DNA of 64,000 nucleotides from Eledone cirrhosa (lineage: Eukaryota). The position numbers and the translations under genes were made by a program. Of this stretch, positions 18,728 through 57,894 are shown piece after piece; positions within the stretch are counted from its first letter, which is position 1; each line of letters starts with the position of its first letter. Below the pieces are notes generated by a model. The model worked only from the letters and a program-made list of their open reading frames with translations, did not search any database and was not told where the DNA came from. The DNA is taken from NCBI GenBank assembly GCA_964016885.1, contig OZ024749.1, positions 35,526,001 to 35,590,000 of the forward strand. Reading direction: 5' to 3'.

Positions 18728-19255
18728 ATATCAATGATATTAATAAATGGAAACTATGTTAATTCTTTTTAAATTCATGTAAATACCAACTCTTCTTTCT
18801 TTCTCTTTCTTCTTCCTACACATACATATATATATCCTAATAATTATTTAAATCTACCTAGCGTCTAAAAATAACGTTTTTTTCAGCCCTATACCTCAAC
18901 CTCATTTGCATATTCATCTTAATAATTTGAAATATTTGACTTTTTCTCTCTTTCCCCTCTTTCCCTTTTACTATCCAGGAAAAACTTGAACTGTTAAGAT
19001 CTCCTTCCTGGATATGTTAATATTTATAAAACAAACATTGTATTTTATCTGATGAGAGCGTACCAAAGTTTTGGTACCCTTGAAATATATATAATAGAAT
19101 AAATATGGTTTTATAAATATAGTTTCCATTTATTAATATCATTGATATTATACTCCAGAAAACTTGTCGAGTGCTTTGACTCAGTTATAAATATATATAT
19201 TTGTTGAATTACCAACAAATTAAATATCCCTTTTGCTTTTATATATATATATATA
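18728..19255 (+). mobile_element. Family A HHR element, diverged copy with a short inverted arm
   Basis: 18728-18757 is inverted relative to about 19119-19149. HHR at 19041. Shares the family tail (tactcc...ttgtcgagtgcttt...cagttataaata). (TA)n on both sides. Confidence 0.65.
19041..19101 (+). ncRNA. Type I hammerhead ribozyme motif, family A
   Basis: TATTTTAT-CTGATGA-GAGCGTACCAA agtt TTGGTACCCTT-GAAA-TATATA-TA-ATAGAATA. Intact core, 8-bp stem I, long stem II, self-complementary stem III (ATATATAT), AUA cleavage triplet. Confidence 0.8.
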
Positions 19256-19574
19256 GCAGTGATTTGAACTCTTGTTCTGATTGTCAGCAAAGTGGGTCAG
19301 TGTGACCACACATGCTGACTCCTGGATAACATCATGTTTATTTTCCCTTTGTTTCGAACTGTCTTCAGCTTGTCTGTAGAAAACATTCAACTAAGGCCAT
19401 TGGCAGTTTATTTAAAAACCAGTTTAATCATGAAAATATCAGTTATCTGAAAATCATCACGATATGGTAACAAAAAGTTTAAGTGAAGTGAAATAGTGAC
19501 AACTAGGACGGGAAACTATCATAATGAGTTGATCTTTACAAATTCCCAGCCAATAAATTTCTTGTAGTTCTTCT

Positions 19575-20235
19575 CAGAGCTGGTGCCTAGATATTTAGCA
19601 GCCTAAGTTAGACCAGCAATGTGTACCCAGGTATTTAGCAACTTAGTCTAACCTTACATGGTGTGCCAGAGTATTTAGCACCTTAGGTTAGCTCTAAAAT
19701 GTGTACCTGGGTATTTAACACCCTAGGTTAGCTCTATAATGTGTCCTGGGCCTGGGTATTTAACACCCTAGGTTAGCTCTACAATGTGTAGCTGGGTATT
19801 TAGCACTCTAGCTTAGCTGTCTAATGTGTGCACCTTTTCTCCCATTTATGAACTTCATTCTCCCAAATAAAATAATTACAACTTATAGTTTGGGTAAGCT
19901 GATGAACCTAGTTTTTGACAATTCTTGCTCTGACCACGTAAGAAAATTACCAAGCCTGCATTTTCTACTACACTGTCCACACACACCTATGCCAAATCAT
20001 GTGACAGTTCATAACACAGTACAACCTTCTCCACTACTTTGGATATTTACACAATGCTACTACACTGCAAAAATGTTTGGCAATTTATTCATTGATCATT
20101 AGAAATTATTATACATTTAATTTAATTATATAAATTTGTATAAAACTGTGATTTTTTAAGGTTTAGTAACGTAGCTCTTTGAGGTCTGTGCCCTTGACAG
20201 CTGCCTAGTTGGCCTTAATAGTAGTGTCGGTCCTG
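19575..20235. mobile_element. hAT-like MITE with internal ~40-bp tandem repeat (related copy at about 22625-22930)
   Basis: Degenerate TIRs cagagctggtgc and gtgtcggtcctg. 8-bp flanks gttcttct and gttcctct match 7/8, consistent with a hAT target-site duplication. Confidence 0.65.
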
Positions 20236-20506
20236 GTTCCTCTCCAACATCTTCATATGTTGTTAGAATACACAAATATATGATGGATCCAGTGAAGGTT
20301 ATATTGACTCACTGATATTTGCAATAACTTAATTACCACTAATTAGCTATAGCAGGATTCTATGCTGCTAATTAATAATGGGTATTCGCTCCCCCCTCCC
20401 CATGATGGCATCTTCACACACGAAATACAACATGCAAAGAATTTTGTCACCAAATCAATACATTTTTGTAATTTTATATATTTTAGTTGTATTGTAGCAT
20501 TGCTTC

Positions 20507-20955
20507 GGAATATGGTAAATCATGTAAGTATTAGATAAGTGTAAAAAACTACAGTTATGGAATATGGTAAATCATGTAAGTATTAGATAAGTGTAAAAAA
20601 CTACAGTTATGGAATATGGTAAAGCATATAAGTGTTAGATAAGTGTAAAAAAAAACTACAGTTATGGAATATGTTAAATCATGTAAGTGATAGATAAATG
20701 TGGGGGAACTGCAGTTATAGTAAAGTGTGTAAGCGTTAGATAAGTGTAAAAAAGCTACAGTTATGGAATATGGTAAAGTAAGTGTTAGATAATTGTAGAA
20801 AAGCTACAATTATTGAATATGATAAAGCATGTAAGTCTTAGATAAGTGTAAAAAAAACTACAGTTATGAAATATGTTAAAGTGTGTAAGTGTTAGATAAG
20901 AGTAAAAAAAGCTACAGTTATGGAATATGGTAAAGTGTGTAAGTGTTAGATATAT
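20507..20955. repeat. 52-bp tandem repeat
   Basis: ggaatatggtaaatcatgtaagtattagataagtgtaaaaaactacagttat, about 8 copies. Confidence 0.9.
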
Positions 20956-21855
20956 TGGTGTTGAGTAACTGTTAAAAATAAGGAAAAGAAAAGGAGCTGA
21001 TTGTCAGATCAGACCAAGGACGAAATGTTTTCATTGATCTTTTCATTGTTCATTCTATCTGTTGGCTGCAACTGATTATTATCATCACCAACATCCTCTT
21101 CGTCATCAACATCATCACCATCATCATTCTCATTATCATAATCATCATTATCATCATGACATTATCATCATGACCTCATCATCATGGTTGTCATCATCAT
21201 CATCATCATCATCCATGATATCATCATCATGGCTATCAACATCATCATCACAATCATCATCAATATATATTGCATTAAATTATGTTACAGCAATTCTACA
21301 CTACGTTTCTAAATATAAGTCAGAATTATAACAGAGTTTGGGTATAATTACCAAATGTATATATATGTATATTGATATATATGTATATGTGTATGAGTTT
21401 GTAAACTTGCACTACTATAAAATATACACAATATATATACATAAATTGAAGCAGAAATAGAAGGCTTGATAACAGGATGTATAAATTCACTGAATGGAAA
21501 AAGATGGGTACCACCCCACATGTGTACTGACACCCATATTGTTCCATTCACTGGGTTTATATGTCCCATTATTAAGACTATATTATTTAGTCAAGTGTTA
21601 CAGTGAAGCCTTCTATATCTACTTCAATTTTCAAACTTCGCTTGATGCTTTGTAAACATACTTCCTTTATATATATATATATATATATATATATATATAT
21701 ATATATATATATATATATATATATATGCAAAGTTTTATTTAAATTGTTGGGTTACAACGAGTAAATATTTATAACTGATATAAAAGCACTCAACAAGTAT
21801 TTGGAGTATATTTACGATATTAAATAAATGGAAACTATATTTATAAAACCATATT

Positions 21856-21921
21856 TATTTCATTATATATATTTCAGGGATATCATATTAAAAATATGCT
21901 ATGCCTTCTTCAGACAAAATA
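21856..21921 (-). ncRNA. Type I hammerhead ribozyme motif, family A (left arm, sense to the bves pre-mRNA)
   Basis: Exact reverse complement of 22077-22142. Confidence 0.8.
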
Positions 21922-55310: not shown

Positions 55311-55744
55311 CAGTTTCTCTCTCAACTCATATATCTATATCTATATATATATCTATCTATCTATCTATATATATATATATATATATATATATATATATAT
55401 ATATATATATATATATATATAAGTGAGATTAAATATATATAAAAGTAGTGGTGACTAAATATTGAGATGAGACATTAAATACACAGTCTTTTTCAGATGA
55501 GGACTAGATAGATATAATCACAGACTCCATCACAGTTGCAATCAACATCGTCCTTATTTTTTATATTTGCTGTCCCTGCTGGTATGGGTTGGATGGGTTA
55601 TTAAACTCCAAGTTAGTTTTGGCCCTTTTAGAAATTTGGTGACAATATAAGTTATTTGTCACCAGATTTCTAATGAAAGACATTGCCTGTGATTTTCAAA
55701 TAATATTGAAAATAATCAAGAATTTTGAGGGAATCAGTAATAGA

Positions 55745-56150
55745 TAGGAACCTCAAGTTGTGATGGTGAAAAGACAGAAACCTGTCTGGTATGGTCACAT
55801 CTACCACAATCTCCCTGTCGAAAACTATCCTTCATGACACAGTTTAGGGAGGGCAAAGAAAAGGCTGACAAAGAAAATTCTATTCTAACAATATCAAAAA
55901 CTGGATGGGTCAAAAAACCAAAACTTCCTGTCTAAAACTATCCTTCAGGACACATGACAGTGACAAATAACATCAATGGATAGGTCACATGGCCACATCT
56001 CCCTGTCTAAAACTATCCTTCAGGACACAGTTGAGGCTGACAAAGAAAATCCTAGCCTGATAACATCAATGGATTGGTCATATGACCACAACCCTTCTAT
56101 ACATAACAGAGAATAGAAACAAGTAGCGACAGCTGATTGCACAAATGTCT
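55745..56150 (+). mobile_element. Degenerate RTE-type LINE 3' fragment with internal duplications
   Basis: KRQK..WYGH.....SKTILQDTVE-like segments occur three times. Confidence 0.6.
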
Positions 56151-57616
56151 AGTATGAAATTTCAATGACTTGTTGAACTTGCTGATGGATGAGTAACAAT
56201 AATTAATTTTCTCATTATACGCATTTATTATCTTATTTCTAACGACAGATACTGATTAGGATTTTAAACTCATATTTAAAATAATCAAGAATTTGAAGGG
56301 ATTTAGTCAAATACCTAATTTTCTTATTATAAAGCTGGTCTTTGAAACATAACAAGGGTTCTTAAATAAAATGATGGTGGAAGATTTTTAGATAGATATA
56401 AAACACTTTAATCCTTTAGTCTTTAAACCAGCCATATCCGGCCAGAATTCTCTCACCTCTTTCTGTTCAAACCGGCCATAACTGGCCACTTATGCTTATG
56501 TTAAAGTATTGTTCTCAAAGTGAATAATATCGAAATCTCACAGATTCAATATTATGTAAGATAATTATGTGAGGTGAAGCCTTTACTGTGAAAATATAAT
56601 GGTATATATAGAGTAATGTAAATGCATAAGGGTTAAAATAAATAAAAAGTACTGAGTTGTCAGAGGCTGAGTGATTTCAGGTGGTTTAGTAATAGTTTTT
56701 GTGTTATAGGAGATAGGATGATTCCAAGCAATTCAGTAAGAAAAAGGCTAATATTTGATTCCTTTGTAATTTTAAAATGTCAACTACAAACCATGTGATC
56801 ATGTGATGCCATAAATTGTCACAACTTCTCACTTTCCTCCATACACTTCTATATTTATATTTATGAAAGGAATCACAAACATACATACACATGAACACAC
56901 ACCCATACACATATATAAAAGTATGCATATATGTATTTATGAAAACGTGTGTGTATATATATATATATATGTTTGCATTTAGAAGTGTATGTATATATAT
57001 GTGTTTGTGTGTGTAGGTATGCATAAAGTACTAAGTGTACATATGTATGTAATTATATATATCAACAAAGAAATAGAAGACATATTTACCAAAATATTCT
57101 AAGTCTAAAAGCATCGATGATTATACAAAACAAAAGAAAAAGTAAAGAAATAAAATGAAGTAAAAAAAGAAAAACGTTTCCATAGAAATAGTTTAGTCTC
57201 CATGGAGATAAAATTCCAAGATTTATCTTTCCAATTTCTGATCATGTTGTATTGGCTTCCTTTTTAATTATATCATGAAATAACATCATAATGTCTAAAT
57301 CAAAATCTAGAAGCTTCCATTAGTCTGAAGTAAATTAAGGAAGAAATGGACATTTTTGCAAGTTTTGATGGCAATTTTGGATTACTAGAGTACCCGAGTA
57401 TATTTCTTAAACCTTTCATTATCCTATATTTCTAAAAAAAGACACTGCCAATATTTTTCAAATAATTTTGAATAAAGTCAGTGGCGTATTGCTGAGTTCA
57501 TTCCACTATACATATACATACACATACACACACATACACACATACATACATATAAACAAATATATATATATATATACGATATTAACAAATGGAAACTATA
57601 TTTATAAAACCATATT

Positions 57617-57681
57617 TATTTCATTATACATATTTCAAGGATACCAAGTCAAACTATGGTATGCCTTCATCAGACAAAATA
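57617..57681 (-). ncRNA. Type I hammerhead ribozyme motif, family A (left arm)
   Basis: Reverse complement of 57830-57894. Confidence 0.78.
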
Positions 57682-57829
57682 CAATATATACCAGTTTTAT
57701 AAATAAACATTGACGTACCCTTTCAAAATGCAACCGTTACTTTTGGAAAACATCAGGATGTCTTCCAAAAGTAACGGTTGCATTTTGAAAGGGTACGTCA
57801 ATGTTTATTTATAAAACTGGTATATATTG

Positions 57830-57894
57830 TATTTTGTCTGATGAAGGCATACCATAGTTTGACTTGGTATCCTTGAAATATGTATAATGAAATA
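57830..57894 (+). ncRNA. Type I hammerhead ribozyme motif, family A (right arm)
   Basis: TATTTTGT-CTGATGA-AGGCATACCA tagtttgact TGGTATCCTT-GAAA-TATGTA-TA-ATGAAATA. Confidence 0.78.

Follow-up and report, generated by a model that had tools for sequence, protein, structure and literature searches.

Hammerhead motifs at an Eledone cirrhosa locus as probable truncated ends of a Hydra-clade Penelope-like element with a duplicated hairpin

What are the seven hammerhead ribozyme motifs in a 64,000-nt stretch of the Eledone cirrhosa genome (assembly GCA_964016885.1, contig OZ024749.1, positions 35,526,001 to 35,590,000 of the forward strand; hereafter the window), and how did they come to be there? 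A preliminary description, made from the letters of this stretch alone, took them for a non-autonomous, self-cleaving retroelement family. Our analysis indicates instead that they are almost certainly 5'-truncated ends, the pseudo-long terminal repeats (pLTRs), of an autonomous Penelope-like element (PLE) of the Hydra clade. A generic scan of both strands for the core, stem II and stem I returned exactly seven type I hammerhead motifs, the same seven that had been described and no others, with cuts predicted after 19093, 22134, 40293 and 57886 on the (+) strand and after 21864, 39660 and 57625 on the (-) strand. The scan retained 7 of the 33 CTGANGA words in the window, and 60 block shuffles gave a chance expectation of 0.03 matches per window. 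Each motif combines a CUGANGA/GAAA/NUH core with three helices and is open at helix I, which is type I topology, and self-cleavage is predicted from these parts. The Rfam hammerhead models, which had been suggested as a check, gave no match in targeted scans of 19000-19240 and 57790-58030, and among the 150 of 238 whole-window matches listed there was no hammerhead, only miRNA-like noise; Rfam also misses the hammerheads of distant Hydra elements.

Self-comparison showed that the seven copies represent four insertion events, all flanked by (TA)n, three of which are head-to-head inverted pairs. In the pair 21856/22077 the two arms are identical over 274 nt and belong to subfamily B: the inverted arm (21723-21996, -) carries a hammerhead at 21856-21921 and a hairpin, introduced below as hairpin 1, at 21785-21807, and its partner (21997-22275, +) carries them at 22077-22142 and 22191-22213. 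The pair 39652/40238 (2 differences in 120 nt) joins an inverted short arm of subfamily C (39603-39727, -; hammerhead 39652-39717) to a long arm (39795-40434, +) with about 350 nt of additional 3' untranslated region (UTR), a hammerhead at 40238-40301 and hairpin 1 at 40350-40372. The pair 57617/57830 (2 differences in about 181 nt) belongs to subfamily D and consists of an inverted short arm (57569-57755, -; hammerhead 57617-57681) and a long arm (57762-58030, +; hammerhead 57830-57894, hairpin 1 57942-57964). The fourth insertion has a long arm of subfamily A (18784-19240, +) with a hammerhead at 19041-19101 and hairpin 1, in the form ACTC...GAGT-GCT, at 19152-19175; its inverted short arm (18727-18763, -) is a ribozyme-less stub that ends about 50 nt past the cut position. 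Each long arm has a close relative connected to coding sequence: 18784-19240 is 93% identical over 457 nt to a pLTR-to-ORF (open reading frame) junction (locus L199), 21997-22275 is 97.5% identical to the pLTR of a full-length element (L076), 39795-40434 is 89% identical over 663 nt to a tandem element with a 737-aa ORF (L318), and 57762-58030 is 93% identical to L060 and L073, both carrying fragments of reverse transcriptase (RT) and endonuclease (EN).

Searching outward from close copies for an autonomous Penelope partner, as had been proposed, led to an ORF for an RT and a GIY-YIG endonuclease with a ribozyme on either side. The earlier remark that no such ORF is visible holds for the window, where we found no ORF homology; such ORFs lie elsewhere in the genome. 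The order of the unit is hammerhead, hairpin 1 (+56; signed positions are relative to the predicted hammerhead cut), hairpin 2 (+146), ATG (+187), RT-EN ORF, 1.4-kb 3' UTR and hammerhead. There are 19 pLTR-ORF-pLTR tandems with a unit of 3,743-3,924 nt, and in 14 of them the ATG lies 187-188 nt past the cut, the ORF has 737-742 codons and the next cut follows 1,339-1,477 nt on. Close copies are 99% identical and 45 of the 61 top protein matches scored have no stop, in keeping with the recent activity that had been proposed. Subfamilies A and E continue into the same kind of ORF (L205, 69% identity over 477 aa; L217, 58% over 474 aa). A complete pLTR-ORF junction is seen for subfamilies A, B and C, and D is linked to coding sequence through the RT/EN fragments of L060 and L073.

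These findings bear directly on the idea that the copies are non-autonomous, that is, a retrozyme-like or short interspersed nuclear element (SINE)-like hammerhead element mobilised in trans. The lack of ORF homology in the window speaks for it, as does the shortness of most copies (307 exact matches to the hairpin 2 junction versus 6,267 to the anchor). However, the window subfamilies are continuous with RT-EN elements, and the pLTR-ORF junctions refute this idea for A, B and C. Read depth declines steadily from the 3' to the 5' end of the ORF, as 5' truncation predicts, and these loci contain none of the ORF-less, direct tandem monomers of 170-400 nt that characterize non-LTR retrozymes (PMC7229834), so that membership in that group does not apply. 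We therefore regard mobilisation of a non-autonomous family as very improbable, and the Penelope-like origin that had been suggested for the palindromic stem III type of hammerhead is supported by RT-EN elements bearing the same ends.

The protein places the element within the PLEs. It is encoded by a single ORF with a telomerase-like RT and the YRDD, IIY and YVG motifs of EN-bearing (EN+) PLEs, and its structure model (mean predicted local distance difference test score, pLDDT, 85.7) has telomerase RTs (TERTs) as best fold matches (E 2e-9). Pfam gave no match for the query protein and recognized GIY-YIG in 3 of 36 homologues; a sequence search of PDB gave no match, and no relatives of the element turned up among viral contigs. 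The best named homologue comes from Argonauta hians. The Hydra motifs RW(K/R), DKT, CxCx5C, CxxC and CxH occur in the query as RWR, DKT, CNCRDRSKC, CDLC and CRH, and in 35, 36, 34, 36 and 32 of the 36 homologues, respectively. The CX2-5CxxC linker of Neptune elements was found in 0 of 36, and CCHH is absent by eye. Its partial tandems, its inverted 5' copies and the tail on one side only are likewise features of EN+ PLEs, and its insertion into (TA)n together with a canonical hammerhead is typical of Hydra; this placement is by motifs in the protein. A Naiad or Chlamys PLE is ruled out by the C-terminal endonuclease and the canonical hammerhead. Other PLE families, with a different, CCHH-like endonuclease, adjoin these elements at L038:5410-6906 (-) and L029:1-654 (-).

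Since the seven copies yield only about four independent sequences, the case for covariation was made genome-wide. In the 2.996 Gb searched, a fixed pattern of stem I, core and stem III has 53,615 exact matches, with both arms of one insertion counted separately, and its reversed control has 0. We surveyed 70 distinct ribozyme variants from the loci retrieved. Stem II positions 2, 3, 5, 6 and 9 alternate between pair types, and in 34 rows chosen for diversity from the 70, eight of nine stem II pairs show two-sided change (55 cells versus 17 in shuffles), in counts that ignore kinship between copies; 95.5% of cells pair. Structure-preserving change, as had been claimed, is therefore borne out for stem II, although not the statement that this stem always pairs: the 22077 pair has G-A at position 8, which is paired in just 45 of the 70 variants. 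Stem I pairs as described, but its changes are one-sided only (G-U to A-U), with two-sided change in 0 of 8 pairs. In the window copies the variable N7 (U, A or G) and the C-C mismatch at the fourth position of stem II are as had been described, and the mismatch is retained in 65 of 70 variants. To sample copies without selecting for the ribozyme, we examined 120 through anchors outside it, 78 of which reach upstream of it: core and stem III are kept in 72 of 78, the six fixed bases of CUGA-GA in 77-78 of 78, and N7 is split 37/22/19. The two-sided changes in stem II and this constancy of core and stem III argue for selection on the ribozyme. Core and stem II are also retained across lineages about 58-69% alike in protein. 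Besides the C-C mismatch, a GG at +13/+14 downstream is largely conserved; a tertiary contact may be involved. Two properties had been called unusual, which comparison with other PLEs does not support. PLE hammerheads with a helix II of 7-8 bp are known (PMC4209133) and distant Hydra elements reach 11-12 bp; the all-AU stem III lies in an element of 24% GC, and other Hydra elements that also join TA runs have mixed palindromes. Helix III has 2 bp in the monomer and 8 bp as a self-duplex of its 8-nt self-complementary strand, and the only change often seen in it, A to G, produces tandem G-U pairs.

Where the copies end was informative about how they are made. Among arms truncated between -190 and +61 (n = 75), 34 begin -5 to +8 from the A in CACT(A/G)C, a conserved word near -138; the arm 21997-22275 begins at this initiator-like A. 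We infer that this site is the 5' end of the RNA, with a strong RT pause as the alternative. Arms beginning near the ribozyme cut number 6 of 75, which is no excess (p = 0.24), and a strong stop at the cut was accordingly rejected. The ribozyme-less 3' fragment at 63787-63885 (+; hairpin 1 63801-63823), which lies beyond the range of the preliminary description, does not start at the cut either; it starts about 50 nt past it. Copy ends do join (TA)n, as had been proposed, but rarely at stem III, the proposed likeness of the target: genome-wide, (TA)n is joined at stem III in 25 copies and 6,173 run through it. In the subfamilies examined, a donor-like G|GTAYGT lies 40 nt past the initiator-like word (in the window at 22037-22044, 40198-40205 and 57792-57799). 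Subfamily E has just about 19 nt between this site and stem I, and any intron there would contain or overlap the ribozyme. Two patterns for a spliced joint between the donor-like site (-98) and a candidate acceptor (+89) had 0 matches among genomic copies, which is uninformative because PLEs keep introns, and the joint was also not seen in contigs of four runs from one study.

The 3' ends fall at two precise positions. When copies are anchored at +67 (n = 90), 85 end on (TA)n at +142/143, another 4 extend as far as the ATG, and the remaining one is rearranged. When they are anchored in the ribozyme (n = 36), 20 are classed as short (about +50; one of these, which carries an insertion, was misclassed) and 16 as long (about +140). 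Distinct head-to-head pairs outside the window consist of one long and one short arm in 42 of 42 cases, most of which were picked by one long arm, a choice that makes short-short pairs invisible and weakens the rule. In the window, 3 of 4 insertions follow it.

Each of the two ends has a related hairpin within about 10 nt downstream. This bulged hairpin, of the form GCUC...GAGC-AC-U, occurs twice between ribozyme and ATG, as ACTC...GAGT (hairpin 1) and GCTC...GAGC (hairpin 2), and both copies are found again in subfamilies A and E, although their proteins share only about 69% and 58% identity with that of B. Hairpin 2 is confined to pLTR-ORF junctions; the 3' pLTR carries hairpin 1 without it. 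The hairpin extends far beyond this species. Of 77 marine metagenome loci with ORFs 32-38% identical, 55 have a testable 5' region, and the hairpin is present in 48 of these, with two copies, 55-83 nt apart, in 31; after removal of redundancy it is found in 40 of 46 clusters. Controls gave 2 hits in 422 ORF windows, 7 in 5,500 shuffles and 1 reverse-strand copy. The bulge U is present in 86 of 86 hairpins, though the search pattern left it free. The inner pair covaries (C-G in 56, T-A in 28, no cross pairs), and the next inner pairs are formed in 59 and 48 of 86, compared with 26 and 21 expected. Among the distant elements, 25 loci have two pLTRs; 11 of these run into the contig end, and in 11 of the other 14 the copy ends -6 to +4 nt from the hairpin start. 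Of the six Hydra consensi in the supplement to Craig et al. 2021 (PMC8557442), five show the motif or a variant of it by eye, Hydra-1_Ajap twice, and three 9-letter hairpin words occur six times in its 584,000 characters, four of them in Hydra consensi. Targeted scans with Rfam gave no match to a hairpin family.

Taken together, these observations suggest that the hairpins probably act as a start signal for RT. The fuller version, in which the clade-wide duplicated hairpin GCUC-Y...R-UH-GAGC-RC-U supplies one copy per cut (TA)n strand, we hold at somewhat better than even odds; one hairpin per cut strand would explain the one-sided tail and the long-short inverted structure together. The hairpins could alternatively work on DNA, with the endonuclease binding its own end or the cDNA, or control translation from the ATG, while AU-rich microhomology sets the ends. 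The Drosophila virilis endonuclease needed the tail for DNA recognition (cited in PMC11167929), both end sites here sit in TA-like tracts just 5' of the hairpins, and no more than 130 nt separate the hairpins from the ATG. However, nearby TA-like tracts, including the perfect 8-nt palindrome of stem III, are hardly used (the 25 versus 6,173 given above), each hairpin is left out of the cDNA that starts beside it, and the target is bare (TA)n. In addition, covariation in the inner stem, together with a 2-nt bulge on one side only, points to folding of a single strand, and the end position follows the hairpin position in unrelated species. We thus consider action on DNA or on translation unlikely.

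We propose that RNA polymerase II would start some 138 nt before the cut, at the initiator-like site, and that the GIY-YIG domain would nick both (TA)n strands, after which one 3'-OH would prime before hairpin 1 and the other before hairpin 2. The two cDNAs would then join at their truncated ends, giving the inverted structure with a "tail" of about 90 nt on one side. Uncut RNA would be the template, since numerous cDNAs pass the ribozyme and reach the start site. The ribozyme itself would probably cut slowly, as a dimer through the 8-nt palindrome or with protein help, releasing a unit that runs from cut to cut. Closed into a circle, this unit would have hairpin 2 downstream of the 3' UTR and would give rise to pLTR-ORF-pLTR tandems again. 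Because the 3' pLTR has no hairpin 2, long copies starting at +140 need a hairpin 2 after the 3' UTR, which a circle or a multimer could provide; priming on a read-through (UA)n tail would remove this need. For the circle step we see the odds as even.

The tandems themselves speak to this step. Within a tandem, the pLTRs show 7 differences in 2,331 sites 5' of the cut (0.3%) and 11 in 1,992 sites 3' of it (0.55%), whereas pLTRs of different elements differ by 7.4% and 3.1%; an unequal homogenisation on the two sides of the cut is not significant (p = 0.24). The upstream pLTR passes -145 in 11 of 19 tandems, reaching up to -1,294. Near-identity and overrun together suggest that a single template is copied more than once to give both pLTRs. 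The same element and priming signals could nevertheless operate with a hammerhead that plays no role in tandems, which would arise by multimer read-through or template jumps while the ribozyme trims or regulates transcripts. This alternative draws on the Anolis Poseidon PLE, where ribozyme mutants insert normally in vitro and no reads end at the cut (PMC11167929), on the missing pile-up of ends at the cut in the present family, and on an array of more than two units. Against it are the homogenisation of both pLTR halves within each tandem, the recurrence of more-than-unit copying from one template, with upstream pLTRs up to 1.3 kb past the start site, and the conservation of core and stem II described above; a circle, moreover, likewise predicts no stop at the cut. 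A hammerhead without a part in tandem formation therefore seems to us a serious possibility, if somewhat short of an even chance. In the multi-unit array (L321, G000:C3:174981000-174990900; subfamily E, 4,001-nt period, 99.2% identical) two junction ribozymes share a G12-to-A change.

Overall, the best explanation is that the window copies are 5'-truncated ends of an autonomous Hydra-clade PLE, inserted head to head in (TA)n, with conserved hairpins that likely position RT; we give it a probability of roughly 65%. Besides the limits of kinship and pair sampling given above, several observations count against it. The Poseidon ribozyme is dispensable for insertion in vitro, and RT there starts in an AC-rich stem loop inside the ORF, which is unlike the present hairpin (PMC11167929). 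The multi-unit array means that multimeric transcripts can supply hairpin 2 without a circle. As for the ribozyme, the usual G10.1-C11.1 closing pair is missing in 66 of 70 variants (A-U in 38, G-U in 19, A-C in 7, G-C in 4 at stem II position 1), the monomer fold is weak (folding z +0.45 to -1.4), and the active fold lies 4.3-5.7 kcal/mol above the minimum. As for the hairpins, the window pair 21723-22275 is long-long and an exception to the one-of-each rule, 7 of 55 metagenome loci lack the motif under the search pattern, the outer 4-bp stem is almost invariant and alone fits DNA or RNA recognition, and G-U outnumbers A-C in the inner stem by only 10 to 5.

The literature already describes hammerheads in pLTRs, the Hydra clade, tails and inverted copies, and the ribozyme family is a very abundant newcomer of a described kind. 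The hairpin is a cis-element that is probably undescribed: a term search of the main text of PMC8557442 found no mention of a hairpin or stem-loop, and neither the duplicated hairpin nor the long-short rule is described in the literature searched or in Rfam, with Repbase, Dfam, subscription journals and figures outside the reach of this search. How PLEs form tails, inverted ends and tandems, and what role the hammerhead plays, are stated open questions (PMC8557442; PMC11167929). A motif that is short, covaries, occurs across the clade and marks the two ends of copies offers a defined cis-element for mutation, and protein is available from at least 14 natural elements that are intact. The motif also lets annotators fix the boundaries of Hydra elements and, if portable, the hairpin would be a template-recognition tag for an insertion enzyme that targets (TA)n.

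The window contains further features besides these insertions. An exon of a Popeye-domain (POPDC/BVES) gene lies at 29865-30344 (-; Pfam PF04831, E 7e-23), and the hammerhead insertions are probably in or near introns of this gene. Right after the 57830 insertion, in (TA)n, is a near-perfect palindrome of about 96 nt (58043-58140), which looks like a separate small TA-targeting inverted-repeat element; similar palindromes occur after an arm in L054 and as a piece in L197. Other dispersed repeat families, some arranged as hairpins, are found at 8952-9409, 25617-25845, 38417-38757, 42871-43383, 54485-55070, 58395-58737 and 60162-60513.

We compared the element with known systems, beginning with the Hydra clade, whose motifs were defined by Craig et al. 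2021 (PMC8557442). It shares with the elements described there a single ORF, a C-terminal GIY-YIG, the RW(K/R), DKT, CxCx5C, CxxC and CxH motifs without CCHH, a pLTR hammerhead, the (TA)n target, partial tandems, inverted 5' copies and a one-sided tail. It differs in its unit of 3.7-3.9 kb with a 1.4-kb 3' UTR, compared with "generally <3 kb", which is given there as a tendency and not a strict criterion, and in having more than 53,000 ribozyme copies. Hydra-1_Obim, listed there from Octopus bimaculoides, has by eye another ribozyme and N-terminus and so is a different family. With the PLE hammerheads reported by Cervera and de la Pena 2014 (PMC4209133), who proposed dimer cleavage and a circle model, the present ones share type I topology, a long helix II, a short palindromic helix III, the occurrence of many sequence families per genome, and opposite-strand pairs 100-700 bp apart. 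They differ from that set in the rarity of G10.1-C11.1, the conserved internal C-C mismatch and the 8-bp stem I. Dimer cleavage (Lunse et al.) is treated in a review (PMC6765202). The number of copies is above the 9,000 reported for Xenopus and below the 126,247 axolotl retrozyme motifs (PMC7229834). Non-LTR retrozymes (Cervera and de la Pena 2020, PMC7229834) are similar in their type I hammerhead, low GC and very high copy number, but are ORF-less tandem repeats, whereas the present copies are truncated ends of a coding element.

In Drosophila virilis Penelope (Schostak et al. 2008, PMC2377424), an internal pLTR promoter has an initiator and a splice donor 46 nt downstream; the present element has an initiator-like site and a conserved donor-like site 40 nt downstream with no acceptor fixed, and any intron would end within or beyond the ribozyme. 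A mechanistic parallel is the Anolis Poseidon PLE (PAc) studied in vitro by Frangieh et al. 2024 (PMC11167929), in which both strands are cut and extended, RT starts at two sites within the RNA that delimit the tail, and the ribozyme is protein-assisted. Two internal RT starts bounding the tail, extension of both strands, an AT-rich target and an uncut RNA template would be shared by the present element, as read from its genomic copies. The PAc starts lie 111-118 nt inside the ORF and 30-40 nt apart, whereas the candidate starts of the present element are in the 5' UTR at a spacing of about 90 nt (55-83 nt in relatives), and each is followed by its own copy of the conserved hairpin. The genomic pattern thus fits the Poseidon scheme and adds to it a candidate signal, one hairpin per start site.

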